IMG/VR virus record: IMGVR_UViG_3300024054_000549
Reading direction: 5' to 3' (one strand)
Source of the DNA: a virus
Taxonomy: Duplodnaviria > Heunggongvirae > Uroviricota > Caudoviricetes
Length of the DNA: 64,000 bases
The position numbers were made by a program, and so were the translations under genes. Each line of letters begins with the position of its first letter. Within the stretch, counting starts at the first letter, position 1. This document shows, one piece after another, positions 3,936 through 45,334 of this stretch. The notes beneath the pieces were generated by a model. It was not told the DNA's origin. It saw only the letters and a list, made by a program, of their open reading frames with translations, and searched no databases.

Positions 3936-3943
3936 TATAAATA
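3936..3943 (+). promoter_or_regulatory. T4-type late promoter TATAAATA
   Basis: exact TATAAATA 28 nt upstream of ATG 3972. Confidence 0.6.
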
Positions 3944-3971: not shown

Positions 3972-5702
3972 ATGTTCCATCATGGCACAATAAGAAAATA
4001 CACGGCTGCATTACTCGACATATTCAATGATCTTGAGATTCAGCACAAAACCAGTTCTGGTGAATTACTTAGTAAAAAAATCCCAATAAGATATTCTACC
4101 AGAGAAAAGGCTACAATTTTCGATGAGTACTCAACCGAGCAATTACTTTCTGGAAATTATTCAATTCTTCCCAGAGCAAGTCTCGCTATGGCGTCGATGG
4201 CGAAATCTGAGCAAAGGGTAACAAATAAGAACACGAAAATAAATCAGTTCAAAACTGATTCAACTATAGAATTTTCATATAATTCTGTACCTTACGAATT
4301 CTCATATGAAATTATCATTCAATGCAGAGGCATGAATGAGGTAACACAGATAATAGAACAAATAGCTCCTAAATTTAACCCAACTCTTAATGTAGATATT
4401 TGGGACGCACAAAATCTAAGTGAGCCAACTAGAGTACCTATAAAATTAACAGATATTCAGTTCTCGTCAGAAGAATATGAAGAACTTTCATCTAACATAT
4501 TCACCATTACGATATCTATAGCATTAATAGGTAATTTATATCCTCCAATAAAATCTCAGGAACGAGTTCAAACGTTCATGATGATGATTAATGGCTTAGA
4601 TGGCGATTATTATACCCAAAAAGAAATGCTAGAATGGGATGTTAATCTTGATGGGTACCTTTTTAATGAAACCTTAGATAATTCTATAGATGGCACTGAA
4701 TACCCAGGAACGTCCGTACCACCAAAACCATCAGGAACGGCATTAACAGCATCGAGAATAAGTGTTCTTGATATTGGTGATTTCTTTACCGGAACAAACT
4801 TAGAGGAAATTCTTCAAGAACTTGGCTTAGAATCAGCTAAACATGAATTAAAATCAAATAAGGGCGTACCACACGGCTATGCACCACTCGATGATTATGG
4901 AAGAATACCTGCTAATTTTTTACCATCTTATGTCGATGATGTCCTAGAGTACGATACCGTTTCATTATTTCCTGAAATTGGTGAAACCGGTAAGATATAT
5001 GTGGATTTGGAATTCAACGAGACATATAGATGGGGTGGTTCTAGCTATATCTATATAACTTCAGGTGCAGTTGATTCAGTTGCTGGAAAAACTGGTGTTG
5101 TGACTTTAGCTAAAGCCGACGTTGGACTTGGCAATGTAGATAATACATCCGACCTGAATAAGCCTATCTCAACTGCTACTCAAACAGCTCTAGATGGTAA
5201 ATCAGGTACAAGCCATACACATAGTGATGCCACCACAACTGCTTCTGGATTAATGTCAAGTACAGATAAATCTAAGCTAGATGGTATTGCTTCTGGGGCA
5301 ACAGCTTATGTGCATCCAAGTGCAGATGGTTCATTACATGTACCAGCTACTGGAACAACTAATGCTGGTAAAGTTCTAACTGCTGGTGCAACAGCTGGTT
5401 CATTGTCATGGACTACTTTACCTGCTGATGCTGTTTCTTCAGTTGCTGGAAAAACTGGTGCAGTAACCTTAGCCAAAGGTGATGTTGGACTTGGTAATGT
5501 AGATAATACTTCTGACCTAAGCAAACCTATATCAACAGCTACTCAAACAGCTCTTGATTCTAAAATTAGCACATCTGGTGTCGCTGGTGATATTCTTTAT
5601 CATAATGGCACCACATTTGTTAAATTAGCAAAAGGCACTAATGGTCAAATTCTAAGTTTAGTAAATGGTCTTCCAGCTTGGGTTAACCCAGTCATTGGTT
5701 GA
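3972..5702 (+). CDS. tail fiber/baseplate-associated structural protein with two phage tail-fibre repeats
   Basis: two copies of SVAGKTG(A/V)VTLAK(A/G)DVGLGNVDNTSDL(N/S)KPISTATQTALD (Phage_fiber_2-like GLGNVDN motif); late promoter upstream; terminator downstream. Confidence 0.65.
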   Translation: MFHHGTIRKYTAALLDIFNDLEIQHKTSSGELLSKKIPIRYSTREKATIFDEYSTEQLLSGNYSILPRASLAMASMAKSEQRVTNKNTKINQFKTDSTIEFSYNSVPYEFSYEIIIQCRGMNEVTQIIEQIAPKFNPTLNVDIWDAQNLSEPTRVPIKLTDIQFSSEEYEELSSNIFTITISIALIGNLYPPIKSQERVQTFMMMINGLDGDYYTQKEMLEWDVNLDGYLFNETLDNSIDGTEYPGTSVPPKPSGTALTASRISVLDIGDFFTGTNLEEILQELGLESAKHELKSNKGVPHGYAPLDDYGRIPANFLPSYVDDVLEYDTVSLFPEIGETGKIYVDLEFNETYRWGGSSYIYITSGAVDSVAGKTGVVTLAKADVGLGNVDNTSDLNKPISTATQTALDGKSGTSHTHSDATTTASGLMSSTDKSKLDGIASGATAYVHPSADGSLHVPATGTTNAGKVLTAGATAGSLSWTTLPADAVSSVAGKTGAVTLAKGDVGLGNVDNTSDLSKPISTATQTALDSKISTSGVAGDILYHNGTTFVKLAKGTNGQILSLVNGLPAWVNPVIG

Positions 5703-9256: not shown

Positions 9257-10764
9257 TTCGATTCTCCATCATCTGTTCCGCCATAGAATTTATTAAATAA
9301 CGGATTCTTTTCTTCTTTTTTGATTTCTTCAAATTCTTTTATAATCTCATCTTGAGTCATTTTGAATATATCAGTGAGAATCTTATTAACAGAGAACAGT
9401 TTTCCTTGATGCTCAGATGCTGTCGTATATATCTCTAGTTTACTCATGAAATTATCAAGTTTCATTTTCTCTATGAATTTATTCTCATTAACGAATTGCA
9501 CTCGTATCGAATCCTCAAGATTATTCCATTCTGTTTCAGAAAGAATACCAGTAGAAATGATTTCCCTTTTAAGTATTTCCTTGAATAATGAAGAATAAAC
9601 CTGTCTTAATCTTGAAATGAACATAAAGAATTTCATATCTTCTTTAGTTGTTCTTGTTTCATCGTAACTAAAATCTTTATCACCTTCTGGGTTGATATCA
9701 ATTCTATTACTTGGAATTTTCATAGATCTGTATAATTTCTTAGCAAAGTATAAAATGTCGTTCATTTCACCAAGATTACCGGTTTCATCTAGAACATCAA
9801 CTGTAGTTCCTTTTCCACCGGAGCGGTTAGCGAACCAATAATCCTCAACCATCGATGTAATGTGTTGCTGATTAGAAACTTCTCCAGTTTCGTTATTATA
9901 GAATTTTTTGTACTTGAATTTACTCTGGTACTCACTCATTACCTCAGTACCACGCTTGTGAGGCAAATCTCCAATATCAACGTTAAATACTCTTCTAGAA
10001 ATTGATCTACTAAATCTCAAAGGTATTAGTAAATCTTCTAGAGTTTTTAACATATTTGCTGGTTTAACAGCATACTCTAAATAGCTTAGAGATATTAATC
10101 CATCTCGTAATCCAAAATCTTCTTTGATCAATTCTTCAATAGTATATTCTTCTTCAGAGTTTTGAAAACTATTTTTAATCTTTAGTTTATCTTCCTTCAG
10201 GTACTTATATGTTTTTGACTTTTTATCAAAATACAACATACAAGGCTCAATCATTTTTATTGATTTGATTCCGTTCTTTGTGTTATTCTTGTCGTAAGCG
10301 CAATGAATGATAATTTGACCATCAATATATGAATTCTTTACTAATGAAAATAAATTTTTTCTTATTTTGGTTAGTTTAATTATCTTATCGAATTTTTCTG
10401 AAATTGTTTTAATTATCTTTTCATTCTCTGTGTCAATTTCTATTTTTAATGGAATCTGATCGTCATAACTGAATATGATCTCATTAACAATTTCATCTAT
10501 AGCATCTGTAACATCAGCTGTCATAGATAACTGTCTATATGTCATTATTTTATTTTTTTGTTTTAGTATAACATCATCTATTTCACCAAAATTGAAAAAT
10601 CCATTTTGAGAATCATTAGAATCAAAAAAAGAGCCACTTATTGGATACAAATCTTCATTAGATAAATCTAAAAGAACATTCTGTTGTTTCACATTTGAAC
10701 TATTTTTTTTAGAATTATCTTCGGGCTGTTTTAGAAAATTCTTTACAATTTCTGTTAGAATCAT
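9250..10764 (-). CDS. 20: portal vertex protein, T4 gp20 homolog
   Basis: YLEYAVKPANMLKTLEDL...NQQHITSMVEDYWF aligns with T4 gp20 YLHRAVKPANQLKLLEDA...NQQHNMSMTEDYWL. Confidence 0.85.
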   Translation of the reverse strand: MILTEIVKNFLKQPEDNSKKNSSNVKQQNVLLDLSNEDLYPISGSFFDSNDSQNGFFNFGEIDDVILKQKNKIMTYRQLSMTADVTDAIDEIVNEIIFSYDDQIPLKIEIDTENEKIIKTISEKFDKIIKLTKIRKNLFSLVKNSYIDGQIIIHCAYDKNNTKNGIKSIKMIEPCMLYFDKKSKTYKYLKEDKLKIKNSFQNSEEEYTIEELIKEDFGLRDGLISLSYLEYAVKPANMLKTLEDLLIPLRFSRSISRRVFNVDIGDLPHKRGTEVMSEYQSKFKYKKFYNNETGEVSNQQHITSMVEDYWFANRSGGKGTTVDVLDETGNLGEMNDILYFAKKLYRSMKIPSNRIDINPEGDKDFSYDETRTTKEDMKFFMFISRLRQVYSSLFKEILKREIISTGILSETEWNNLEDSIRVQFVNENKFIEKMKLDNFMSKLEIYTTASEHQGKLFSVNKILTDIFKMTQDEIIKEFEEIKKEEKNPLFNKFYGGTDDGESKW

Positions 10765-20854: not shown

Positions 20855-21194
20855 TTCGATTCAATTCTGTTCTATCCATTAATTCACAATATTCTTTGGC
20901 TTTTTGAATTGATATCTTAAAGAAATCAGAAATGTAACCAATCATTTTTTCTTCGTTCTCTGATTCTGCTTTTGGATAAGGGATATATTTTACCTTCCCT
21001 GCGAATGATTTCTTAATCAAAAAGTACTGATTCTCAACTGGGATATCAAAATACATATTTATGAGATTCGCAGCACCAATAGTATAAGGATTTCCAGATA
21101 GCCATTTACAGAATATAAAAGATGGTATTTTTTGAATTTCTTCTAATTCTGGTGTTTTCTTTAGATCTAACGCTGACGTTATAATTTTGAACAT
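20817..21194 (-). CDS. hypothetical protein (possibly clamp-loader small subunit-like)
   Basis: ORF immediately downstream of pol C-part; weak resemblance only. Confidence 0.3.
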   Translation of the reverse strand: MFKIITSALDLKKTPELEEIQKIPSFIFCKWLSGNPYTIGAANLINMYFDIPVENQYFLIKKSFAGKVKYIPYPKAESENEEKMIGYISDFFKISIQKAKEYCELMDRTELNRIVKMYEEYESKK

Positions 21195-22312
21195 TACCAG
21201 TCCTCTAACTTTTCAGTTTCTTTATATAGATCATAACCCAATGGCTCAACCATCAGTTCTAGAGGTTTAAGAAAATTCTTGACGAATTGTTCATCGTAAT
21301 TAACCAAATCTCCTATCTCTGAAATGAAGTTATCATTAGTATAAGCGATAATTTCTGTATCGAATTTGTTAGGTTCAACTAGAAAAAGTCGTTTGCATTT
21401 ATCACCAGCTTGAATCGGGGCGTATTTATTTTCAATTGAATTCTTTTTGATGTACAAATTATGTTTAATGGCAGCCCTTGAGCCAAATGGAACACCTTTA
21501 TCAGAAAGATCGTAATCAATTCTAGATACTGCTCCAACTGAAGCTATGTCGTTTAAATCAGAATTCTTAAATTCTGATTTGATTTTTCCAATCCAATCTT
21601 TAAGATTACTTTCATTACCGTCGAGAATAATTGGAATAGATTCTTTAAGATATTTTTTAGACCATTTCGGTGTTGAACTTTTAATGATTTCTAAACCTGT
21701 GACCTTGATTTTCGGCTCAGAATCAGCATAACGAGTTCCCTCATTATCCCTTAGTCTAATATAGTATTTTTTCTTAGCTGTAAATACCCCAACATCGGCA
21801 ATAGCTTCTCGTTCTACACCAATTTTATCTTTGTTATAAGCGTTTAATTCAGATGCAAAGTCATCGATAGTTTTTTTGATAACTGGTTGAATGATTTTTT
21901 TCTCAAATGCATCAGCCCAATCGACATATTCATTTATACTTAAGTTTGGGTTATTTACCTTGAACCTTTCCATAAATGGGTTAATTGTATAATAAACGGA
22001 ATCAGTATCTCCACTTACGATGTACGTTCCATCTATTTTGAGCAGATTTTGGAGCGTACTCTCAATATTGTTAGCTAATTTTCGAATAAAGTACCGACCA
22101 TTACCTGTAATAGCGGCAGCCATATCTTCGTTGAATAATGAGAACCATCTATTCGCCATAGCGCCATACAGAGAGTTCATAATGGTCTTTAGAGCTAACT
22201 GATTCGTTTTATACAGCGACTCCTTAGATTCTGCTTCAGCGTACAATTTCTTAAGTTCAGAATCTGATAATTCCCTGAGTTCAGATTCAGTGTATTCAAG
22301 AACGTCATTCAT
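21194..22312 (-). CDS. 43: DNA polymerase (family B) C-terminal part, gp43B (motifs B and C)
   Basis: NSLYGAMAN (KxxxNSxYG) and VSGDTDSVYY (DTDS); N-terminus aligns to T4 gp43 residues just after its motif A region. Confidence 0.9.
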   Translation of the reverse strand: MNDVLEYTESELRELSDSELKKLYAEAESKESLYKTNQLALKTIMNSLYGAMANRWFSLFNEDMAAAITGNGRYFIRKLANNIESTLQNLLKIDGTYIVSGDTDSVYYTINPFMERFKVNNPNLSINEYVDWADAFEKKIIQPVIKKTIDDFASELNAYNKDKIGVEREAIADVGVFTAKKKYYIRLRDNEGTRYADSEPKIKVTGLEIIKSSTPKWSKKYLKESIPIILDGNESNLKDWIGKIKSEFKNSDLNDIASVGAVSRIDYDLSDKGVPFGSRAAIKHNLYIKKNSIENKYAPIQAGDKCKRLFLVEPNKFDTEIIAYTNDNFISEIGDLVNYDEQFVKNFLKPLELMVEPLGYDLYKETEKLEDW

Positions 22313-22520
22313 TTAGTAACCCAATCGTTCGGACAATTCTATTGATGTATTCAAGTTGTTTCATTTTTCGCTCGGCCCTTGAGTATTTAGAATAACATTC
22401 TATACAAAAGTATGTTAATCTTTTCGATCGCGCGTGAAAAGAAAACTCAGTTTCCTTTTTGTTCTCATAACAGCATTGACAAAATTTTAATTTGTCACTT
22501 GTTCCTCTAGCTATTTTCAT
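22305..22520 (-). CDS. small CxxC..CxxC zinc-ribbon-like protein inserted at the polymerase split
   Basis: FCQCCYEN....FCIECYSKY; start overlaps stop of 43A (ATGA), end overlaps start of 43B. Confidence 0.45.
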   Translation of the reverse strand: MKIARGTSDKLKFCQCCYENKKETEFSFHARSKRLTYFCIECYSKYSRAERKMKQLEYINRIVRTIGLLNE

Positions 22521-24106
22521 TGTTTTCTTTCATTTAGAATAGAACCAATAAGAACTTTTCGTTTTTCATAATCGAACATAATCTTTTTCGATTTTTTACG
22601 ATCGTCATAAATTTCTTGAACCATTTCAGGAATCATACCAAGTTTATCTTTAGAAAAAACAGCACCATTAATACCTAATGAATAGTTGTATTTCTTTATA
22701 AGCTCAGTTACTGCTCCAAAGATATTCTGATCCAATTCTAATCTGGCACCCTCGTCTTGATCATTAAAATATGACAAGATAAGATCCCGCAAATCGCTCG
22801 GAAGCTTATACTTAGGGACAAAAGTCTCAGGACTCATATTAAATCCGACCATACCCAATAATGGGTACATGGAATTAACGTCACCAGAAAGAATCCATTT
22901 GTGTCTACCTTTAACTGGATCCCTAACATAACCGCCCACAACAGATGGTTGAGAATTATCTGACCTAGGAGGCATAACCCGTTTATTCAGCATGGATTTA
23001 TTCATGATGTACTGACTCCATGGTTTAACTGTTCCCATGGCATCGCTAATCTGAACGCCCATTTTTTCGGCAATCATATTCATAAGAACAGTAAGATTCT
23101 TAGAATCATCAATTTTCTTAATAAGATATGTATCTTTTACACCATAATAAACAAAGTCAGAGTGAGCTAATTCCTTTACCTCTTCATTTAGTGAATTAAT
23201 TGCAGCGTTATAAATTTTTGAAGATTTTTGTTCATCAGTTGGATTGTTCGGTACAATATATTTTCCAGTATAGAAATCATCAAAACTTGCATATTCTGTA
23301 TGCTGTACCTTATTTTCCTTTAACTCGATTTCAGCAATAGTATCCAAAGAATATGATGGCCTAGGGTCAAGAACGAATTTTTTATACACAATCATTAAAT
23401 CGGTATAAAAATGACCATCAGCATTGAAATTAAATTCTATTTTACCGTCCTGAACAGCTTCAGAATATGAAACATTCCCATAATTCGATAAATCGTTAAC
23501 ATTCATTCCCAAATTTTTAATTCGATTGTAAATGAATGGGAAGTCGAATCCAGCACCGTTCCAAGCGTAAATGATCAATGGATCTAATTTTTTAAAGAAT
23601 GAAATGTAAGTTTTGAGTAACTGAACTTCATCCTTGCAATTGATGTACTCAATCTCGTAAGGGAACTCATAATCACTCTGATGTTTCCAATCTTTCAATC
23701 CTAATGCGAACATTTTGTTCTCTTTAGAATCGAAAAATTGCATTAGAGTAATCTGTTGATCGGCTTTCTCGGGCAATGGAAAACCATTTTTAGATCGTGT
23801 TTCAATATCTAGGTACCAGATTCTTGGTGAAGAATTGTAAGCATTCTTATTCCAATAATTATCACGGATATTTCTATAAATTGGATCGAGGAATCCGTAA
23901 GAATCTCTTCCCTCTTTAGCATTACCTTGTTTTTTATCTAAAGTAATATCTTCATCAAGGATGAATTTATAAAGACCCCTCGAGCTTGGCTCGTACCATT
24001 CATACGGTAACGTTATTTCTGATTTAACAGATTTTTTAAGTTCAGTGTCGTAATATCTCTCGAAAAATGAGAATTTGTTCTTATATGCTGACTCGAATAA
24101 TTTCAT
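22517..24106 (-). CDS. 43: DNA polymerase (family B) N-terminal part, gp43A (3'-5' exonuclease domain + motif A)
   Basis: YAWNGAGFDFPFIYNRI ~ T4 gp43 FTGWNIEGFDVPYIMNRV (Exo II); SGDVNSMYPLLG ~ SFDLTSLYPSII (motif A). Confidence 0.9.
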   Translation of the reverse strand: MKLFESAYKNKFSFFERYYDTELKKSVKSEITLPYEWYEPSSRGLYKFILDEDITLDKKQGNAKEGRDSYGFLDPIYRNIRDNYWNKNAYNSSPRIWYLDIETRSKNGFPLPEKADQQITLMQFFDSKENKMFALGLKDWKHQSDYEFPYEIEYINCKDEVQLLKTYISFFKKLDPLIIYAWNGAGFDFPFIYNRIKNLGMNVNDLSNYGNVSYSEAVQDGKIEFNFNADGHFYTDLMIVYKKFVLDPRPSYSLDTIAEIELKENKVQHTEYASFDDFYTGKYIVPNNPTDEQKSSKIYNAAINSLNEEVKELAHSDFVYYGVKDTYLIKKIDDSKNLTVLMNMIAEKMGVQISDAMGTVKPWSQYIMNKSMLNKRVMPPRSDNSQPSVVGGYVRDPVKGRHKWILSGDVNSMYPLLGMVGFNMSPETFVPKYKLPSDLRDLILSYFNDQDEGARLELDQNIFGAVTELIKKYNYSLGINGAVFSKDKLGMIPEMVQEIYDDRKKSKKIMFDYEKRKVLIGSILNERKQ

Positions 24107-28473: not shown

Positions 28474-29052
28474 TTATATCTTTGAATCGATCAATCCTAT
28501 TTTAATAGCTTCTTCATAACCCATGAAATAATCTCGTTGTGTTCGTTTTTTCATATCTTCTAATGTGCTTTTTCCTTTTGAAAAAGTTACCATATCCGAT
28601 AAAATTTTATCTTGTAAGTACTTTGATTCATTAAAATCAATTTCAATATCATGAATTGTACCATACATTCCTGAAGAAACACTGTGAATCATGATCCTTG
28701 TGTTCTCTGTGCACTTCCTAGTTCCTGTTCCAGAAGCTAATAGATATGCTCCCATACTAGCACAAAATTCGATTCCGTGTGTATTAACTTTAGATTCGAT
28801 TGAGTAAATGACATCTTTAATAGCTAAACCGGAATAAACCGAACCACCAACAGAACTAATATATAGATCAATCGGCTCGGTCGGATTATCTGAATTTAAC
28901 CATAACAGTTGCATAATAATGTTCGTGCAAGCACTATTATCAATTTCACCATTTAAGTAAATAATTCTATTCTGTAGTAATTTAGTTGGTAAATCAAAAG
29001 ATTTTGATGTCCGACCTAATTTTTCAATAACACTAGGAAAAAAACTCATCAA
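28474..29052 (-). CDS. clpP: ClpP-like ATP-dependent protease proteolytic subunit (S14 family)
   Basis: colinear with ClpP: RIIYLNGEID..DLYISSVGGSV..CASMGAYLLASG..RIMIHSVS (Ser/His catalytic residues in context). Confidence 0.8.
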   Translation of the reverse strand: MMSFFPSVIEKLGRTSKSFDLPTKLLQNRIIYLNGEIDNSACTNIIMQLLWLNSDNPTEPIDLYISSVGGSVYSGLAIKDVIYSIESKVNTHGIEFCASMGAYLLASGTGTRKCTENTRIMIHSVSSGMYGTIHDIEIDFNESKYLQDKILSDMVTFSKGKSTLEDMKKRTQRDYFMGYEEAIKIGLIDSKI

Positions 29053-29289: not shown

Positions 29290-29655
29290 TCATTTACCTT
29301 CATAATAGTCCTTGTACGATTTAATTATAATTCTTTGTTTGATAATTAATGACTTAATTTCAGCTAAATTCATAGCTAAATTTTCATATGAATCGTCAGT
29401 TAAACCGAAAATTACTGGACTGTAATTCTTTTCTTTTAAATCTTTAAATACACTTTCAGCATTATCAGATGTAACTATAATCCACTTCAGAGGCTTTAAT
29501 TCTACAATTTTAGGCTCTTTAATCCGTAATTCTTCCTTACGAATTGGAACTGTATCAACAACTATGGGTTTAACTGGTTCGGCAGCACACCCAATTATAA
29601 GACTACTTAGAATTGGAATGAAAAAGTTCTTGGCATTCACTATTTGTTTCTCCAT
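29290..29655 (-). CDS. lipoprotein, candidate o-spanin
   Basis: MEKQ..FFIPILSSLIIGC lipobox followed by Pro-rich region; gene overlaps 3' end of upstream TM/coiled-coil gene in another frame (Rz/Rz1-like). Start chosen at internal Met (track ORF extends to 29712). Confidence 0.4.
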   Translation of the reverse strand: MEKQIVNAKNFFIPILSSLIIGCAAEPVKPIVVDTVPIRKEELRIKEPKIVELKPLKWIIVTSDNAESVFKDLKEKNYSPVIFGLTDDSYENLAMNLAEIKSLIIKQRIIIKSYKDYYEGK

Positions 29656-30085
29656 CTTTAATTTCTGATCCACTAGATAATTCAAAACATCTAAGAACCT
29701 TATTAGATGCATTATTGATTATTTTTTCCATCAATTTAGTTTTAGCTATTGCTATTTCACCAATATCTCGTTGCTGACCATTAGCTTTAACGTTTAATCT
29801 GTTGTTTAAATCACTAACTTCTTTTTCTAAGGAAGAATTCATTGAAATCAATCTATCGTTGATATTAACTATTTTTTTAGCTTCAATAATTTTTTCGCTA
29901 AGAGCATTTTTTTCAAGTTCAAGAGATTTTTTCAAAATGCTAATATTAAATTCAGACATTTCTAAATTATATCGTGCATCTTTAAGATCAGATTTTAACG
30001 AATTAATATACATGAATAGACCGATGATGAGCAAAAATTCCCCGATTATCAGAGCTAATCTTGCATATGAAAATGTTAAATTCAT
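29603..30085 (-). CDS. type II membrane coiled-coil protein, candidate i-spanin
   Basis: N-terminal TM LALIIGEFLLIIGLFMY then coiled-coil. Confidence 0.4.
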   Translation of the reverse strand: MNLTFSYARLALIIGEFLLIIGLFMYINSLKSDLKDARYNLEMSEFNISILKKSLELEKNALSEKIIEAKKIVNINDRLISMNSSLEKEVSDLNNRLNVKANGQQRDIGEIAIAKTKLMEKIINNASNKVLRCFELSSGSEIKDGETNSECQELFHSNSK

Positions 30086-30086
30086 T

Positions 30087-31184
30087 TTATTTCCTGTCAG
30101 ATGATTGAATAATGCGTTTAAATAAATTCTTATTGTTTAATTCAGAATCATATTGTGCGAGTTTTTTATAAACATCTGGTTCATTTTTCTTCAAAGATTT
30201 AAGAAACGAAATACAAATTTCAATTTCTAATGAGTACAGATAACACAGAAGATAAAAAATATCACTTTCACCATATTTATTACTTAGCTGATTAGCCAAT
30301 TCAATTTTCTGTATTGCTTCAATCTTAGAAATTTTTTCTGAAATATATGAACCTAATTCTTCAATTGTTGATACGGAATTTTTATGCTTAAGAATTAAAT
30401 TCTCAATATCGGTTATCTTTATTGAATCTTTGTAATTTTTGAAGAATACATAAAACTGAGAAGCAACCTCTGTTCCAATTTTTCCTTTCATAACTTGGAA
30501 CAGAATGTCATTGCTTATTTTATCGGCATTATTAAGATAATTACTGAGTTTAGCCCATGATCTAGGAGTTGCTCCAGTTCCTTCGCTGGAAAGCCAGTGC
30601 AATCGATCTGGATGCTCAGAAATAAATCCAATTATGGTATCGTTAATACCTGATTTTCTAGCCCATTTTAACCAAGATTCAGCATCTGGTTCAATTTTTA
30701 CATGCAAGAATCTATCCAGTAAGGCAGTATCTAATTCATCAACTTGGTACTGATCTGCTGGATTAATTGCCGCAACAATTAAAGTTCTTGAACCAGAAGT
30801 AACGGGTAACTCGTGTTCATGAATTTTCCGTTCAAGAACTAATTGCATAGCAGATTGTCTAACGTCAGTTTGAGCTCGATTTAATTCATCTAAAAATAGA
30901 ATACATTTCTTGCCATTTTTTGAAGCATTTCTCAATCGTTGAAGCCAAATTGGAACACTCCATGTAGTTAATGTTAATCCATCTGATTGAACAATATGAG
31001 GAATTCCAATTAAATCACCGATTTCGTTGTGAGATAAAAACAATTCCTCGATGTGGTAATCATTTTCAGTAGCGAATTGATTAACTATTTGAGATTTTCC
31101 AATACCATGAACACCTTCTAAGATAACTGTGTCGTCAGCAATTGCTGCAGCACTGATGATATTCTTAGCTGTTTGAATATTCAT
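30087..31184 (-). CDS. MoxR-like AAA+ ATPase
   Basis: Walker A GVHGIGKSQ, Walker B ILFLDELNRA, sensor region IVAAINP. Confidence 0.75.
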   Translation of the reverse strand: MNIQTAKNIISAAAIADDTVILEGVHGIGKSQIVNQFATENDYHIEELFLSHNEIGDLIGIPHIVQSDGLTLTTWSVPIWLQRLRNASKNGKKCILFLDELNRAQTDVRQSAMQLVLERKIHEHELPVTSGSRTLIVAAINPADQYQVDELDTALLDRFLHVKIEPDAESWLKWARKSGINDTIIGFISEHPDRLHWLSSEGTGATPRSWAKLSNYLNNADKISNDILFQVMKGKIGTEVASQFYVFFKNYKDSIKITDIENLILKHKNSVSTIEELGSYISEKISKIEAIQKIELANQLSNKYGESDIFYLLCYLYSLEIEICISFLKSLKKNEPDVYKKLAQYDSELNNKNLFKRIIQSSDRK

Positions 31185-31772: not shown

Positions 31773-33998
31773 TTAAAACTTCATTTCAAATTTAGCTCCT
31801 ACAGAATAACCATTTACCCCACGCTCACCGTAGGATTTAATAATTTCAGCACTGAAATTCGACTGTTCATTAGAGCGGAAGATATAATTGAAGCCTAGGT
31901 TAACTTCGCGCTCTGAAGGTTTAATATTAACCTTCTCATTGTGATAAATGATATTCCCATCCATATCACGAGCTACTGGAACATGCAAATTCATCGATCC
32001 TTTAACAACACTAATCGGACTAGATAACCGAACTCGTGCATCGGATTTTTTATCAATTGACCATCCATACTGGACGCCAGCACCAATTCCATGGAAACTA
32101 GAAGTTTCAGAAATCAAACTGTTAGAATTTTTTGTCCCTGGGGAAACACCATAGTCAAGCCATGCTCCCCATCCTGTCCATTCTGAATTTCCTAGTAAGC
32201 CACGGAAATAATGAGTTCGAGTATTCTCTGTGTTCAATGCCCCGCTAGAAACAGTACCAAACATTCCAGCAGCTTGACCGTAATGAATGGTTAAATCACC
32301 TAATGTATAACCAACTGTAACCTCACTTGTTCCTTCTTTAAGACCAAGTTTGAAATTGCCGGCGTTTAGCTGTTTAAATTCACCAAAATTATATTTTGAG
32401 TTAGTTACAACAACAGCTTTAGTCAAATCAATGTTAAATGCCCTGTCAAAATCATCTAGCACAACAGCATCACGAAGTGAACTAGACTTAAGAGCTGAAG
32501 CAACAGCAGCAGGAACAACGATAACAGTTTTATTCAGAGATGCCGAATTTGAATCAATCTTGGATCCCAATGGGAGCTTAATATCACCGATTGGTTTCAT
32601 TGCTTTTGCTACATTCAGTGAACCATTACCGTAAACATCATCAATACCAGGTTCACCGAGATCATCGGCTGTGGCGAAAATAATTTTAGTGATTTGACCA
32701 CCAGTCAAATGAGGGAATTTTTCAATTAGCAATGCTGCGGCACCAGAAACAACCGGAGCAGCCATACTCGTACCACTGAGCTGAATGGTTTCGAGTAATT
32801 TATAAGAACTAGTTGAATTAATGGCTGAACCAGGCGCTGTGATGTACCAATTCTTTGTAACACCAGCCTTGTTTGAATAAGAGGCAAGTTTCCCGGTTTC
32901 GTCTAATGCCCCAACAGCTATAAATCCACCGATTCCTTTTACTAAACCTTCATAGCCTTTAATAATTGGCAAGGCAGCAGGAAATCCGCATGACACGATT
33001 CCGGTTGAATCTGGCAAACAAGATTTCTTATCATTACCAGCAGCTGTAACAACAATCATTCCAGCATTAACGGCCTGAATAAATCCAGATGTGCTGAAAT
33101 CGGGTGTTGAAGTAAACCCAGAGTCCGTATACATGAAATTGAAAATTTCTTCATTAACAGGAAGGGGATTAACAACATTATACTTCATGGCAACGCCCAA
33201 TGAAAGGTTAGCTACTTTAGCCCCTTCTTTTACGGCAAGTTTAAGTCCACGATGTACATCTGTTGGATATAAAGTCCGACCAGAATCACCAAGAACCTTA
33301 ATTGGAAGAATTGTTGAATTAAATGCCACACCGTGAATACCACGATCATTTTTTGCAGCACCAATAATACCAGCAACATGTGTCCCGTGAATATTCTTAT
33401 CAACAGCACCTTCGGTAATAACACCATTTATAACGGTATATCCCAATTTAGCATTGTTAAATTCTTCACGCCGACCAAGGCCGGTATCAAGAACAGCAAC
33501 AGTCACACCATTCCCGGTATATCCCTGCTTATAAGCACTGTCCGCTCCGATAGCCGACAAAGCTCTGTTAAACAGATATTCTTTTGTTTGGTAATTAATT
33601 TCTGTTTGGACTGTGTTTGGATTTTGAGTTGTTGGATTCAATACATCATTGACTCTAACCCGTTCAGCTTGGAATAATTCAAGCGTGTCCTTAGTATCTT
33701 GAAGTTTATTTTTGTATTCTTCAGATTTACCTGCATCTTTGAAGTACTTATTATTAGTATACAGGTTGAGAAGAGTTCCGTAAGATTTCTCTAAACCCGT
33801 ATAGTTTTTAATCATGTTATCAAGCAAATTTAACTTTTCTTTACCATCTTTTAGCTTTGAGAACATATTAAATGTTTTAACATCAGCTACTTGAGATTCC
33901 ATCTGAATGATGTTTAACTCAGCTTCAGAAGCTATTGCTATGTCAGACATAGGAAATGTTAACGCAAGAGAGAGAACTAAAGGTTTAATTTTGCTCAT
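31773..33998 (-). CDS. secreted subtilisin-like serine protease (S8) with C-terminal autotransporter-like beta-barrel
   Basis: signal peptide MSKIKPLVLSLALTF; catalytic triad motifs VAVLDTGL, HGTHVAGII, GTSMAAPVVSGAAAL; C-terminus ..VGAKFEMKF ending in Phe (OM beta-barrel signature). Confidence 0.8.
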   Translation of the reverse strand: MSKIKPLVLSLALTFPMSDIAIASEAELNIIQMESQVADVKTFNMFSKLKDGKEKLNLLDNMIKNYTGLEKSYGTLLNLYTNNKYFKDAGKSEEYKNKLQDTKDTLELFQAERVRVNDVLNPTTQNPNTVQTEINYQTKEYLFNRALSAIGADSAYKQGYTGNGVTVAVLDTGLGRREEFNNAKLGYTVINGVITEGAVDKNIHGTHVAGIIGAAKNDRGIHGVAFNSTILPIKVLGDSGRTLYPTDVHRGLKLAVKEGAKVANLSLGVAMKYNVVNPLPVNEEIFNFMYTDSGFTSTPDFSTSGFIQAVNAGMIVVTAAGNDKKSCLPDSTGIVSCGFPAALPIIKGYEGLVKGIGGFIAVGALDETGKLASYSNKAGVTKNWYITAPGSAINSTSSYKLLETIQLSGTSMAAPVVSGAAALLIEKFPHLTGGQITKIIFATADDLGEPGIDDVYGNGSLNVAKAMKPIGDIKLPLGSKIDSNSASLNKTVIVVPAAVASALKSSSLRDAVVLDDFDRAFNIDLTKAVVVTNSKYNFGEFKQLNAGNFKLGLKEGTSEVTVGYTLGDLTIHYGQAAGMFGTVSSGALNTENTRTHYFRGLLGNSEWTGWGAWLDYGVSPGTKNSNSLISETSSFHGIGAGVQYGWSIDKKSDARVRLSSPISVVKGSMNLHVPVARDMDGNIIYHNEKVNIKPSEREVNLGFNYIFRSNEQSNFSAEIIKSYGERGVNGYSVGAKFEMKF

Positions 33999-34016
33999 TT
34001 CATCACCCATTAAAAA

Positions 34017-34139
34017 CCGTAAATTGCTTTACCAATCAAAAACCCGATGATTATTGTGATGGTAAAATATACCAACTTGTCACCAAAGTTATGACTATTT
34101 GAATCAGTGTCGAAATTAATTGAGGGTTTCATTTTTGAA
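34017..34139 (-). CDS. small hydrophobic peptide (40 aa)
   Basis: hand translation MKPSINFDTDSNSHNFGDKLVYFTITIIIGFLIGKAIYGF, directly downstream of an early promoter. Confidence 0.3.
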
Positions 34140-34161: not shown

Positions 34162-34189
34162 ATTATAACACATTCTTTGAAAATGTAAA
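34162..34189 (-). promoter_or_regulatory. T4-early-type sigma70 promoter (GTTTACA -N17- TATAAT)
   Basis: plus-strand cattataacacattctttgaaaatgtaaacac. Confidence 0.6.
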
Positions 34190-34233
34190 CACTTTTTTGA
34201 ATTTTTTCAAATATATTTATATGACAGGTGAAT

Positions 34234-34770: not shown

Positions 34771-35301
34771 ATGTTCGATAAAATTTCACTTTCACCCAAT
34801 GATCTAGATTGTCGGATAACGATGATAACCGATAAATCTGGTAAAATTCAATACGTTAGCGACTATTTTTTATCAACTACCGGTTTCACTAGAGAAGAAT
34901 TAATCGGTCAAAATCCTAGAATATTCTCATCTGGTTTACATAACAAGCAATTCTGGGAAAGAGTTTTTAAACATATTGAGCAAAATGGTGAATGGTCAGG
35001 ATATATAACTAATCTTACCAAAGCAGGAACTCAATATGAAATGTTTGAAATAATTTTCGACATTGGTGAAATGTATGTCGTCGTTAGAGCTCCATCAAAT
35101 AATACGATGAGAGTTCAAACGAAATTATTTATTAAAGATCTCATTTACGAACTATCACAACCATTAACTTATCTTGTGTTCCTTTCTGGCATGCTAAAGA
35201 ATAATAAAACAGTTAATATAAACGATGAGAAAGAAATGTTAGTTGAAAGTATCAATAGATTAGATTTAATTCTAAATAACATCAAATCATTATCACTCTA
35301 A
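34771..35301 (+). CDS. PAS-domain protein
   Basis: GFTREELIGQNPRIFSSG...FW.......GEWSGYITNLTKAGTQY resembles PAS fold signature. Confidence 0.5.
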   Translation: MFDKISLSPNDLDCRITMITDKSGKIQYVSDYFLSTTGFTREELIGQNPRIFSSGLHNKQFWERVFKHIEQNGEWSGYITNLTKAGTQYEMFEIIFDIGEMYVVVRAPSNNTMRVQTKLFIKDLIYELSQPLTYLVFLSGMLKNNKTVNINDEKEMLVESINRLDLILNNIKSLSL

Positions 35302-35564
35302 TCTGTGCATTTAGAATAAGAACCAATACCACCAGCATTCAAAACAGTGAATCCTTTTGAACGTAAATGCTTTACAGCCATTTCACTTCGAGAACCACTT
35401 CGGCAGTACAATAAGTACTTATTGTTCACATTAAGTGAGTCAATTTCACTTAGTCTGACATTAATTGCACCTTTAATTTTTGCATATCCAAATTCGTGAG
35501 GTTCCCTCACATCAACAAGGATCCACCCGTCGTTTAAATAATCTTGTAGTACTTCACATGACAT
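35298..35564 (-). CDS. rhodanese-domain protein
   Basis: single rhodanese fold with active-site loop CRSGSRS. Confidence 0.7.
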   Translation of the reverse strand: MSCEVLQDYLNDGWILVDVREPHEFGYAKIKGAINVRLSEIDSLNVNNKYLLYCRSGSRSEMAVKHLRSKGFTVLNAGGIGSYSKCTD

Positions 35565-35579
35565 AAATTAACTCTTAAC

Positions 35580-36236
35580 TTAAAATTTCTTAGCTGTTTC
35601 AATAATCGAATTAAAAACGGCTTGACGTTTAACAAAATACTGAAAAAGCCGCATAGTATTAAATGCATCAATATCTGCACGATGTGCCAATCCTTTAAAA
35701 GGCATTTTATAGATACCCATGGCAGAACCTAACCCACCCGCTGGCTTTTTTCCCTTTGCGATTTGATTGAATAAATGAAAAGTCTTGACATCTATCCATC
35801 TACGACCAAAGAATGGAAATTCAACATTTCGATCTTTGAATTCTTGCAGCAATTCAACTGAATCTCCTCCACCCCATGTTACAGGGTTCACGAAACAGTT
35901 ATGCTCTGATATCAAATCACCAAGTTCTTTTGCAAGATCGCTGTGTGAAATGGCATAGGTTTCGATATCTTGATCGGTAATACCAGTTAATGCTGTAATT
36001 TCTGGATAAATTGGCTCGTTAGGATCAATGTACCATTTTTTAACGATCCATTCAGATTCGTCACTTTCAACGGAACCGATAGCAACACCAACCTGAATAA
36101 TTTTCGGTTTTGGTGTGCTACCATCGGCTGTATTATTAAGTTCTAAGTCAAGAGCAAGAAAGTTCATTTTACTCGTCTGATTTACTAATAGTCCAGGTTC
36201 CATCACTGTTATCTGTCCAAATAAGAGTGTCTCCAA
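35580..36236 (-). CDS. DEDDh-type 3'-5' exonuclease (DnaQ/oligoribonuclease-like)
   Basis: exo I LALDLELNN, exo III HRADIDAFNT; true start probably MNFLALDL (~36167). Confidence 0.7.
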   Translation of the reverse strand: METLLFGQITVMEPGLLVNQTSKMNFLALDLELNNTADGSTPKPKIIQVGVAIGSVESDESEWIVKKWYIDPNEPIYPEITALTGITDQDIETYAISHSDLAKELGDLISEHNCFVNPVTWGGGDSVELLQEFKDRNVEFPFFGRRWIDVKTFHLFNQIAKGKKPAGGLGSAMGIYKMPFKGLAHRADIDAFNTMRLFQYFVKRQAVFNSIIETAKKF

Positions 36237-36360: not shown

Positions 36361-37149
36361 TTACTTCATCATCAATGAATTGAAATTAGCTGGCACAACA
36401 ATAGTCTGAACCTTCCCGTCACGAATTCCTTCAGAAATATTAATCATAGCCATAGCATTCATGTACTCAACTGCACCTTTGTTTGCATTCAAAGCAGCAA
36501 TACGTTCAGCCTCTTTCTTTGCTGTTGCAACTTCAACTTCTTTTTTCTTCAATTCATTTTGAGCTCGAACCAAATCATTAGCAGAAGCAATAATTGCATC
36601 AGCAGGAAGAATTTGACGAACTAGAACCTGTTGAACACTAATCGAGTCATCTAGTTTTTCAGATGCTAGAACTGCAACCATGGCTTCGCGAATTTCTTGT
36701 TCAATCTGAGTTCGAGCATCATTCATTTTCAATGCTTCGTACTTCCTTGCACTCTTATATGTTGCATTTCGTGCAATACGATAAATGTAGTTATACATTA
36801 GAAGAATGTCACCGTCTTTCGTTGCACTATGAAATTCTTTGTTCTTATCTATATATAGCTCTGCTACTTTTGCTGGATTGATTGAGTACACGATAGATAC
36901 ATCAAAGTCTTTAATTGTTGAGTTATCAGCTGCAAGCGGTGACATATCAGCAACATCAACTTGAACATCTTTTACACTGAAGGTTAATACTTCTCCGATA
37001 ATCGTTTGATTCCAGGAGCCAGGAAGCAGTTCTTCTTGTTTAATTTGTTTATCAAATCCTACCCGAACGCCAACCTCACCGGTTTCAATTCGAGTACAAC
37101 CAGAACTCATAATAGCCAATGCAATAGCAGACATCGCGAACATTTTCAT
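36361..37149 (-). CDS. SPFH/band-7 (prohibitin/HflKC-like) lipoprotein
   Basis: lipobox AIMSSGC; ETGEVGVRVGF.. SPFH domain; C-terminal Ala/Glu-rich coiled coil. Confidence 0.75.
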   Translation of the reverse strand: MKMFAMSAIALAIMSSGCTRIETGEVGVRVGFDKQIKQEELLPGSWNQTIIGEVLTFSVKDVQVDVADMSPLAADNSTIKDFDVSIVYSINPAKVAELYIDKNKEFHSATKDGDILLMYNYIYRIARNATYKSARKYEALKMNDARTQIEQEIREAMVAVLASEKLDDSISVQQVLVRQILPADAIIASANDLVRAQNELKKKEVEVATAKKEAERIAALNANKGAVEYMNAMAMINISEGIRDGKVQTIVVPANFNSLMMK

Positions 37150-40707: not shown

Positions 40708-40735
40708 TATTATAACACAATTTCCTGAAATGTAA
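40708..40735 (-). promoter_or_regulatory. T4-early-type promoter copy
   Basis: gattattataacacaatttcctgaaatgtaaacac. Confidence 0.6.
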
Positions 40736-40806
40736 ACACTTCTGAAAAATATTTTTACAGGTTCGGATTAATTTTGATGTAGATGATTTGTAAAAAATTA
40801 AACATT

Positions 40807-42217: not shown

Positions 42218-42245
42218 TATTATAACACAATTTCCTGAAATGTAA
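42218..42245 (-). promoter_or_regulatory. T4-early-type promoter copy
   Basis: ggttattataacacaatttcctgaaatgtaaacac. Confidence 0.6.
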
Positions 42246-42290
42246 ACACTTCTGAAAAATATTTTTACATTGTTAACTGTTAAACAATCT

Positions 42291-45300: not shown

Positions 45301-45328
45301 ATTATAATACAATTTCTAAAAATGTAAA
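45301..45328 (-). promoter_or_regulatory. T4-early-type promoter copy
   Basis: attataatacaatttctaaaaatgtaaacac. Confidence 0.55.
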
Positions 45329-45334
45329 CACTTC

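Follow-up and report, generated by a model that had tools for sequence, protein, structure and literature searches.

A predicted outer-membrane subtilase with an autotransporter-like architecture encoded by a T4-like phage

The protease gene, its promoter and its assembly

We analysed a 64,000-nucleotide stretch of viral DNA (IMG/VR record IMGVR_UViG_3300024054_000549; hereafter, the window). An earlier reading of the letters alone (the sequence-only reading) had assigned this DNA to a T4-related phage, and had described one of its genes as encoding a secreted subtilisin-like (S8) autotransporter protease. The core genes of the window, which include topoisomerase II, tail sheath, portal, a gp41-like helicase and a split DNA polymerase, are those of a T4-like myovirus. 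The protease ORF is real and lies on the minus strand where it had been placed (Table 1). In full it spans 31773..34010 and encodes 745 aa counted from the first ATG; we used the 741-aa version, which starts at the ATG at 33998, and the alternative start at 34010 would add the residues MGDE. No intrinsic terminator was predicted 3' of the gene. Two overlapping ORFs with weak similarity to Rz-like spanins lie ~2 kb downstream (29290-30085).

Table 1. Features of the protease gene and its upstream region, in window coordinates.
Feature	Residues	Position	Strand	Basis
Sigma-70 / T4-early-type promoter, GTTTACATTTTCAAAGAATGTGTTATAAT		34162..34190	-	-35 GTTTACA, 16-nt spacer, extended -10 TG-TATAAT
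40-aa ORF, MKPSINFDTDSNSHNFGDKLVYFTITIIIGFLIGKAIYGF		34010..34132	-	First ORF after the promoter; putative coding
Protease gene, 741 codons + stop	1-741	31773..33998	-	ORF; start matches MFKK/MKK starts in homologue alignment
Predicted Sec signal peptide	1-23	33930..33998	-	Hydropathy and sequence inspection; A-x-A conserved in alignment
N-terminal helical region	24-135	33594..33929	-	Long helices in model, moderate confidence
Peptidase S8 (subtilase) catalytic domain	162-459	32622..33515	-	Pfam profile match
Catalytic Asp	D171	33486-33488	-	Invariant in 60 homologues
Catalytic His	H204	33387-33389	-	Invariant in 60 homologues
Oxyanion Asn	N322	33033-33035	-	Invariant in 60 homologues
Catalytic Ser	S411	32766-32768	-	Invariant in 60 homologues
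Linker mini-domain	465-540	32379..32606	-	Short strands and short helices; pLDDT >90
Predicted C-terminal outer-membrane beta-barrel	541-741	31776..32378	-	DSSP of model, pLDDT 94; dyad hydrophobic alternation

The early-type promoter reported upstream of the gene matches 11 of 12 consensus positions and carries the TG extension, and it is one of 11 near-identical sites: GTTTAC-N16-19-TATAAT occurs 11 times in the window, always on the minus strand, against a chance expectation of 0.14. Both features that mark an early gene of a T4-like phage, T4-type core genes and a sigma-70-type early promoter belonging to a family of the phage's own, are found here, and by this analogy we infer that the protease is transcribed early in infection. 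Strong extended -10 promoters also precede the genes of relatives at three loci (L005, L006 and L009); the number of promoter-like sites at the relatives' loci was no higher than in shuffled sequence. We also found a T4 late-promoter motif, TATAAATA, 82 nt upstream of the 40-aa ORF. Across the window this motif occurs about as often as chance predicts (10 found, 9.9 expected), and we make no claim of late expression.

Between the promoter and the protease gene lies the 40-aa ORF, which ends in a stop codon that shares bases with the protease's first ATG (TAATG). It had been called a hydrophobic leader peptide. The ORF and the hydrophobic character of its C-terminal half stand, but the leader role does not, because the upstream regions of the relatives' genes are unrelated and contain no equivalent ORF. 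Searches of Pfam and PHROG with the 40-aa sequence gave no match.

We considered whether bacterial DNA had been joined to a phage contig by misassembly. The gene is somewhat richer in GC (38.6%) than the window as a whole (34.2%), and S8 proteins with the same barrel are known from bacteria. By contrast, two public datasets contain independent assemblies that encode the identical protein: the 745-aa product is recorded from a 160-kb contig, and a separate 10.9-kb Logan contig (SRR7617317) carries the gene beside the same neighbours as in the window. The gene shares strand and spacing with its neighbours and carries the phage's own type of early promoter, its codon usage (r=0.87 versus core genes) falls inside the range of the core genes themselves (0.80-0.95), and T4-like gene clusters likewise surround its nearest relatives. 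We therefore regard misassembly as extremely improbable.

Predicted architecture of the protein

The N-terminus has the three parts of a Sec signal peptide that the sequence-only reading had recognised: an n-region (MSKIK), a 12-residue h-region (PLVLSLALTFPM) and a c-region (SDIAIA). Cleavage is predicted after AIA, before SE, at a position that aligns with the AVA, AIA and VSA sites of relatives. Some relatives have instead a lipobox and a poly-Gly stretch, as in lipidated surface proteases. The helical region that follows may be a pro-region or a stalk; an I9-type subtilase propeptide was considered for it and excluded.

The S8 domain matched PF00082 (Peptidase_S8) over all profile positions (1-288 of 288) with an E-value of 3.4e-48 and 164.9 bits, against a cut-off of 21.8 bits. 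All three D/H/S motifs quoted in the sequence-only reading are present. The triad is in the order Asp-His-Ser and is accompanied by the oxyanion-hole Asn, with the codons verified, and the domain has the subtilisin alpha/beta fold, with a cysteine pair at C327/C337. Judged by this conservation, the active site is intact. The closest proteases are broad-specificity secreted subtilases (thermitase, subtilisin E and Pseudoalteromonas proteases). Among S8 models of anti-phage defence systems, IetS matched at E=2.5e-5 (20.8 bits) and IteS at 14.8 bits against a cut-off of 900, in both cases over the S8 domain only; a defence role was ruled out because the PADLOC matches reflect generic S8 similarity. 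We likewise rejected a role as a virion or prohead protease, against which the signal peptide, membrane barrel and early promoter all speak.

Between the protease and the barrel lies a mini-domain that contains the most conserved non-catalytic motif of the family, LDDFDR, in which D515 is invariant and R519 nearly invariant across 60 sequences. DSSP assignment of the AlphaFold model (pLDDT >90) revealed no long or pore-spanning alpha-helix in the 76 residues before the barrel, where the helices are only 4-8 residues long (497-504, 507-510 and 525-528).

The C-terminal domain is predicted with high confidence to be an outer-membrane barrel. The sequence-only reading had drawn the same conclusion from the FEMKF end; in the model the C-terminal ~200 residues form the barrel, and the chain ends in GAKFEMKF, which resembles a beta-signal. 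Almost all of the 60 sequences share this terminal F, and most IMG/VR relatives end in F, W or Y. The DSSP string of the model gives 13 strands, with periplasmic turns of 2, 4, 2, 7, 2 and 2 residues and external loops of 6, 7, 1, 15, 16 and 5 residues, lengths that are consistent with the topology of an outer-membrane protein. The best fold matches include the 12-stranded NalP translocator; porins score equally high, and the 14-stranded OmpG and FadL have similar scores.

Kinship with autotransporters and distribution of the family

The sequence-only reading had labelled the protein an autotransporter, and had taken the absence of an autotransporter-domain match as an outcome that would speak against the label. 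PF03797 (Autotransporter) was indeed unmatched in the protease and in 60 of 60 family members, even at E≤1, and comparison of the barrel by hhalign with C-termini of other S8 proteins that carry PF03797 gave a probability of 0.2%. A phmmer search of the protein against PDB sequences returned nothing relevant. The autotransporter label thus holds for the overall architecture but not for membership in PF03797: the lack of a PF03797 match, the hhalign result and the lack of a helix before the barrel indicate an autotransporter-like protein that is not demonstrably a member of the classical family. The barrel belongs to a sequence family of its own.

The protein might still be a bona fide type Va subtilase autotransporter, of the kind represented by NalP, SphB1, Ssp and EprS, with a beta-domain that has diverged too far for Pfam. 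The failure of all 60 family members to match PF03797 and the near-zero hhalign probability both argue against this. NCBIfam models for the subtilase autotransporters EprS (NF051851; 92.4 bits versus a cut-off of 1700) and fusolisin (NF033865; 51.9 bits versus 999) were matched far below their cut-offs and over the protease part only. In addition, an alpha-helical linker is not predicted, a beta-helix stalk is absent, and the fold comparison scores porins as high as autotransporters. We consider a diverged type Va protein distinctly unlikely.

Megablast of the gene and of the surrounding 24 kb against 50,697 phage records returned no match, and as judged by these searches no close relative of the phage has been sequenced. 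Nearest to it are the Vibrio phages Va1, phiKT1024 and pv27, with 54% protein identity in a MoxR-like ATPase; within the 19 kb inspected around the ATPase gene, none of the three encodes a protease. When the whole protein was used as a tblastn query against phages, only the S8 domain was matched, at coverage of ≤45% and mostly in Bacillus phages. The barrel alone had no match in the 50,697 deposited phage records at E≤1. Genes of this kind had been described as highly unusual in T4-related phages, which is true of deposited genomes (0 in 50,697) but not of IMG/VR, where we found 76 ORFs with S8 and barrel on the 80 loci kept. Several of these relatives lie in verified T4-like contexts, between gp45 and gp44/62, beside RNR and SegE, or beside RnlA/gp63.

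The barrel was C-terminal in all of 314 cluster representatives, with S8 upstream of it in 9/9 sampled proteins; one uncultured-phage protein carries a VCBS-repeat region in place of S8. On this sampling, fusion to S8 is the rule for the barrel family with few exceptions, and several clades of uncultivated phages maintain it. Bacteria also encode proteins that combine S8 with the barrel, and the cellular homologues occur in free-living marine bacteria such as Pelagibacter. Among the matches listed in a scan of genome contigs, in which generic S8 matches prevail, there was no close full-length bacterial homologue and nothing that pointed to a host. BFVD contains entries from uncultured phages that are described as porin-like or "autotransporter beta-domain" proteins, and outer-membrane pore genes together with tmRNA are already known from marine T4-like myophages (PMC9004378). 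Our literature searches yielded no account of an S8-barrel protein from a phage; the gene family recurs in uncultivated phages and is hitherto undescribed.

Possible function and comparison with known systems

We cautiously favour a model in which the gene encodes a non-canonical, autotransporter-like subtilase that is made early, is embedded in the outer membrane and remodels proteins of the envelope or surface. The host sigma-70 RNA polymerase would read the early promoter at 34190-34162, a site identified in the sequence and with timing assigned by analogy with T4. Sec would export the pre-protein, and the signal peptide would be removed after AIA. With the help of BAM, the C-terminal ~200 residues would then form a 12- or 13-stranded barrel in the outer membrane of the host, a fold for which a confident prediction and the fold comparison speak, and the S8 domain (D171/H204/S411, N322) would thereby be tethered to that membrane. 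Most probably the S8 domain would be displayed at the cell surface in the manner of type V secretion, and would there cleave proteins of the host's envelope or surface.

With the odd count of 13 strands in the DSSP strings, the chain preceding the barrel would lie outside, a placement relative to the barrel that is read from strand parity alone. An outer-membrane-anchored protease that faces the periplasm, with the barrel as an anchor only, would instead cut periplasmic or envelope-tethering proteins (equivalents of Lpp, OmpA or Pal), and so weaken or remodel the envelope, for example ahead of lysis or to keep out the DNA of other phages. If the number of strands is even, the N-terminus of the barrel stays periplasmic except when a segment passes through the pore, and the model predicts no pore helix; the 76-residue linker domain would be larger than the interior of a 12-stranded barrel. 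Envelope-acting genes also lie nearby, in the form of the weakly spanin-like ORFs downstream. We nevertheless consider a periplasmic protease unlikely.

A third possibility is that a surface or released protease digests external protein and supplies the phage with amino acids in nutrient-poor water, as a nutrient-scavenging auxiliary gene. The similarity of the S8 domain to broad-specificity secreted subtilases is consistent with this, as are the abundance of the family on environmental viral contigs and the homologues in Pelagibacter-type marine bacteria. However, a single infected cell would gain little per infection cycle because the products would diffuse away, the outer-membrane tether and the lipidated variants suggest a target on the cell surface, and no gene for peptide or amino-acid uptake is linked to the protease in the neighbourhood. 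Scavenging thus appears very unlikely.

Under the favoured model of a surface-displayed subtilase, the most plausible benefit is that surface proteins such as phage receptors would be removed or altered enzymatically. Removal or alteration of receptors would exclude superinfecting phages and would keep infected cells and debris from binding progeny. There is precedent in NalP, a lipidated subtilase autotransporter that sheds other surface proteins (PMC5472700). Superinfection exclusion and receptor trimming, both suggested in the sequence-only reading, are plausible functions. A more specific proposal is that a phage module resembling type V systems yet distinct from them, with a barrel family of ~200 residues and a D/R linker in place of a pore helix, displays an early subtilase that shaves the receptors of the phage itself or of its competitors, in T4-like phages whose hosts are marine or other Gram-negative bacteria. 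Superinfection exclusion and progeny protection would then be enzymatic, a form that is not known to have been described for any phage; we put this proposal forward tentatively and consider it unlikely.

If the model is correct, virulent-type phages install an active protease in the host outer membrane early in infection, which goes beyond the blocking or masking of receptors. Host-surface takeover of this kind would form a new mechanistic class, and it would bear on superinfection, phage-phage competition, loss of progeny to debris and possibly the dispersal of marine biofilms or aggregates. For secretion biology, the barrel family lies outside Pfam and has a small conserved domain where classical autotransporters have a helix, and it could reveal a different solution for the translocation or anchoring of passengers. 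The abundance of the family in metagenomic viral contigs and its absence from deposited phage genomes point to a recurrent function that culture collections have missed.

The subtilase autotransporters NalP, SphB1, Ssp, EprS, AasP and fusolisin have PF03797 barrels, to which the phage barrel has no detectable sequence kinship. Unlike the NalP-type proteins, the phage protein has neither a predicted pore alpha-helix nor a beta-helix stalk, and it joins protease to barrel through a 76-residue alpha/beta mini-domain (D515, R519); moreover, it is encoded by a phage, behind an early promoter. EstA of Pseudomonas aeruginosa and AaaA are autotransporters that carry a globular enzyme passenger directly on the barrel. 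Their enzymes differ, however, being a GDSL esterase and an M28 aminopeptidase, respectively, and both have the canonical PF03797 barrel, in which a helix runs through the pore. Small 12-stranded porins and channels (the KdgM/NanC family, PcoB and FapF) have only 6-12% sequence identity to the phage barrel, and the porins KdgM and NanC lack an N-terminal enzyme domain.

Other phage genes also place proteins in the host envelope, among them lambda Lom and Bor, T5 Llp, T4 Imm and Sp, and the CsgGF pore of pelagimyophages and of Melnitz, but none of these is a protease. Lom and Bor are prophage morons rather than early genes of a virulent-type phage. Llp and Imm/Sp provide exclusion or receptor masking, the same benefit that we propose for the phage subtilase; by contrast, their exclusion operates by binding or blocking, not by cleavage.

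An intact S8 subtilase with an export signal in a T4-like phage

The 741-residue open reading frame described in the sequence-only reading is present as described, on the minus strand, from the second ATG of the gene, at 33998. Homologues have their MFKK/MKK starts aligned with this ATG, from which the n-region is positively charged; starting at the upstream ATG would put MGDE in front. Residues 162–459 form the S8 domain (Pfam Peptidase_S8, E=3.4e-48), and an alignment of 60 sequences shows no variation at the catalytic residues D171, H204 and S411 or at the oxyanion Asn, N322 (codons verified), bearing out the D/H/S motifs that had been proposed. Every feature of the S8 family that we tested is found, the protein is a member of that family, and an intact subtilase is strongly supported. 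The same holds for the export signal: the N-terminus has predicted n-, h- and c-regions (MSKIK / PLVLSLALTFPM / SDIAIA|SE), and its A-x-A position matches AVA, AIA and VSA in aligned relatives. Export would be through Sec, with cleavage after AIA.

Core genes in the window include those for both topoisomerase II subunits, tail sheath, sheath stabiliser, portal, DNA ligase, a gp41-like helicase and a split family-B DNA polymerase. The window is that of a T4-like myovirus, with no close sequenced relative, since none was found by megablast, and assignment of the protease to this phage is strongly supported. That the gene owes its place to misassembly is hardly credible: the identical 745-aa product is recorded independently from several sources, on a 160-kb contig, and a separate 10.9-kb Logan assembly has the same neighbours, indicating that the gene is not an assembly artefact. 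Its codon usage has a correlation of r=0.87 with the core genes, whose own values span 0.80–0.95; GC content is slightly higher (38.6% vs 34.2%).

Genes for ClpP-like, MoxR-like, Band_7/SPFH and RNase T-like proteins form an accessory cluster around the protease. The MoxR-like ATPase has its 54% identical homologues in Vibrio phages Va1, phiKT1024 and pv27 (~191–195 kb). The ClpP and MoxR genes are common to the window phage and the phiKT1024 group, and the protease was not found in the 19 kb of phiKT1024 inspected around its MoxR-like ATPase gene. From their sequence matches, the two overlapping ORFs beside the ATPase gene are a possible i-/o-spanin pair; their phiKT1024 homologues are annotated as hypothetical. 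The PAS gene is the sole sizeable plus-strand gene within a long minus-strand run, and a PAS sensor is unusual cargo for a phage. The polymerase split recurs in L005, a T4-like locus carrying a relative's gene. No riboswitch adjoining the tmRNA was found with Rfam; there are precedents for phage tmRNAs among marine T4-like myophages, Melnitz for one (PMC9004378).

Positions of the protease gene and other features (L numbers, IMG/VR loci carrying relatives' genes)
Feature	Position	Strand	Evidence or remark
Protease ORF	31773..34010	-	745 aa from first ATG
ClpP-like protease	28474-29052	-	Pfam E=6e-44
Two overlapping ORFs directly downstream of MoxR-like ATPase	29290-29712 and 29603-30085	-	weak Rz-like spanin PHROG matches, E=9e-6 and 9e-4
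MoxR-like AAA+ ATPase	30087-31184	-	54% identity to Vibrio phage homologues
PAS-domain protein	34771-35301	+	Pfam, precomputed annotation
Rhodanese-domain gene	35298-35564	-	Pfam, precomputed annotation; converges with PAS gene
RNase T-like exonuclease	35580-36236	-	precomputed annotation of Logan contig
Band_7/SPFH protein	36361-37149	-	precomputed annotation of Logan contig
Family-B DNA polymerase, exonuclease/N-terminal part and polymerase C-terminal part	21194-22312 and 22517-24106	-	
One-piece tmRNA, full length, tag peptide ANDERFALAA	17496-17855	-	ARAGORN; Rfam RF00023, 207 bits
Near-identical early promoters, GTTTACATTT...A..TG(T/A)TTATAAT	11 sites between 17412 and 62742	-	e.g. 40709-40737, 42219-42247, 45301-45329
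Lipobox/poly-Gly protease ORFs	L011-L013, L015, L018, L026, L028, L041, L066-L069, L077		

The C-terminal barrel and its relation to autotransporters

We modelled the whole protein with AlphaFold2 from the 60-sequence alignment (pLDDT 86, pTM 0.78), and residues 465–741 alone (pLDDT 94.4, pTM 0.86). The predicted models strongly support a C-terminal outer-membrane barrel; for comparison with a classical autotransporter, its strand number is ~12 by fold and 13 by DSSP, the latter between residues 541 and 739 and most with dyad hydrophobic alternation. The chain ends in GAKFEMKF, with a terminal aromatic residue that is nearly invariant in the family. Ahead of the barrel, 76 residues fold into a mini-domain predicted with confidence and made of short strands and of helices 4–8 residues long; it carries an invariant D515 and a nearly invariant R519 (LDDFDR).

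Of the autotransporter label given by the sequence-only reading, the outer-membrane barrel stands as a prediction and the family name does not. The Pfam Autotransporter model (PF03797) had no match at E<=1 in the window protein or in any of 60 family members, and local profile-profile comparison of the family C-termini with those of 14 PF03797-bearing S8 proteins gave a probability of 0.2%. The NCBIfam models of EprS and fusolisin, both autotransporter subtilases, match in the protease part only, at scores well short of the cut-offs; phmmer against PDB sequences returned nothing relevant. Whereas classical autotransporters have a long pore helix, the predicted model has none ahead of the barrel and has the mini-domain instead. 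Structural scores for the barrel did not separate autotransporters from porins. Given the profile results and the missing helix, a true but diverged classical autotransporter is distinctly unlikely. Among the defining features tested, two speak against membership of the classical family, namely a beta-domain of PF03797 type and a helix in the pore, and we therefore file the protein as autotransporter-like rather than as an autotransporter.

To our knowledge, the C-terminus is periplasmic in all outer-membrane proteins. With the C-terminus so placed, turns in the DSSP strings alternate as expected (periplasmic, 2, 4, 2, 7, 2 and 2 residues; external, 6, 7, 1, 15, 16 and 5), and the odd strand count would place the chain entering the barrel on the outside. 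Such entry, predicted from the model, is what an autotransporter-like topology would require. Insertion of the barrel would be BAM-dependent. An anchored protease that faces the periplasm is unlikely, and a nutrient-scavenging auxiliary enzyme very unlikely; we favour a protease that is displayed on the cell surface and acts on host surface proteins.

Promoters and the upstream 40-aa ORF

The intergenic region 5' of the protease unit contains GTTTACA-N16-TG-TATAAT, matching 11/12 consensus positions. The motif GTTTAC-N16-19-TATAAT has 11 copies in the window, all on the minus strand, with 0.14 expected by chance; those at 40709 and 42219 are identical 29-mers. Judged by sequence, this is a genuine sigma-70/T4-early-type promoter family that maps the phage's early transcription units, and the early-type promoter claimed ahead of the protease gene is strongly supported. 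The genes of relatives in L005, L006 and L009 also have strong extended -10 sigma-70 promoters 5' of them, with a site number not above shuffled expectation in these short regions. The first ORF after the promoter of the protease unit would specify a 40-aa product whose tail is hydrophobic; it has no family match, and its stop overlaps the first protease ATG. The ORF exists as reported; its description as a leader peptide is unsupported, since nothing resembling it precedes the relatives' genes.

Overall, the window has no excess of the T4 late-promoter motif (10 found vs 9.9 expected), and one copy lies at 34214–34221, 5' of the protease unit. Five copies of TATAAATA, at 3936, 10853, 10891, 12102 and 12123, lie 5–89 nt 5' of gene starts in the morphogenesis region, including those of a sheath-stabiliser-like gene (3972) and the portal gene (10764); from their sequence and position, these are probably real late promoters.

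A recurrent phage-borne family and its possible role

An exhaustive phmmer search with the C-terminal 277 residues against 1.84 billion cluster representatives found 314 proteins at E<=1e-3; among the matches listed, the barrel is C-terminal in essentially every full-length protein, and S8 lies upstream of it in 9/9 sampled cluster proteins. The closest proteins share just 33–40% identity with the window protein. Scanning IMG/VR gave 443 relatives, with 76 ORFs matching the barrel profile on 80 loci kept. A Sec signal, or else a lipobox with poly-Gly after it, is present in nearly all 76; most retain the S8 motifs and end in F/W/Y. At several loci the surroundings include a T4-type polymerase, MoxR-like ATPase, helicase, thymidine kinase or phage-only PHROG families. 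The gene for the homologue P0006 lies between gp45 clamp/DsbA and gp44/gp62 clamp loader genes, and after these come RegA and a split DNA polymerase; that for P0005 adjoins RNR and a SegE-like endonuclease, that for P0008 sits among DNA ligase, SAM lyases and a SprT-like protein, and that in L009 (IMG/VR) adjoins RnlA/gp63 and RNA ligase 2. In a crude neighbour-joining tree (no bootstrap), the window protein groups with relatives from T4-like contexts, the remaining viral sequences fall into clades of their own, and proteins on long bacterial contigs stand apart. Membership of a recurrent phage-borne family is strongly supported. The barrel is absent from deposited phage genomes, even at E<=1, and the supposed rarity in T4-related phages is true of those genomes only.

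Two proteins of uncultured phages in BFVD share this barrel, one with an S8 domain (TM 0.74) and one with a VCBS-repeat N-terminal region instead (TM 0.70). Of the entries A0A6J5L9S5 and A0A6J5KUW0 (uncultured Caudovirales), one combines barrel and VCBS-repeat and another has a classical autotransporter beta-domain in its annotation; type-V-like surface proteins of more than one kind may occur in phages. In L004 and L005, tRNA-like sequences with a GGTTCGA(G/A)TCC T-arm motif lie directly 5' of the protease gene (~9830–9900 and ~5360–5560, respectively), which may mark a tRNA-cluster insertion hot spot. In many viral relatives the Sec signal gives way to a lipobox followed by poly-glycine (e.g. 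...LTACGGGGGG...); these S8-barrel proteins would be lipidated and in that resemble NalP.

In the literature we found no account of this barrel family, nor of a phage-encoded subtilase anchored in the outer membrane. Phage-encoded outer-membrane proteins themselves have precedents, among them Lom and Bor of phage lambda. Others are the porin-like and 'autotransporter beta-domain' phage entries in BFVD, and the CsgGF pore carried, with tmRNA, by marine T4-like myophages (PMC9004378). For function, NalP offers the best analogy: from the surface of the meningococcus, this lipidated subtilase autotransporter sheds other proteins (PMC5472700). By this analogy, the phage enzyme could shave receptors or other surface proteins off the infected cell, which would exclude superinfecting phages and spare progeny futile adsorption.
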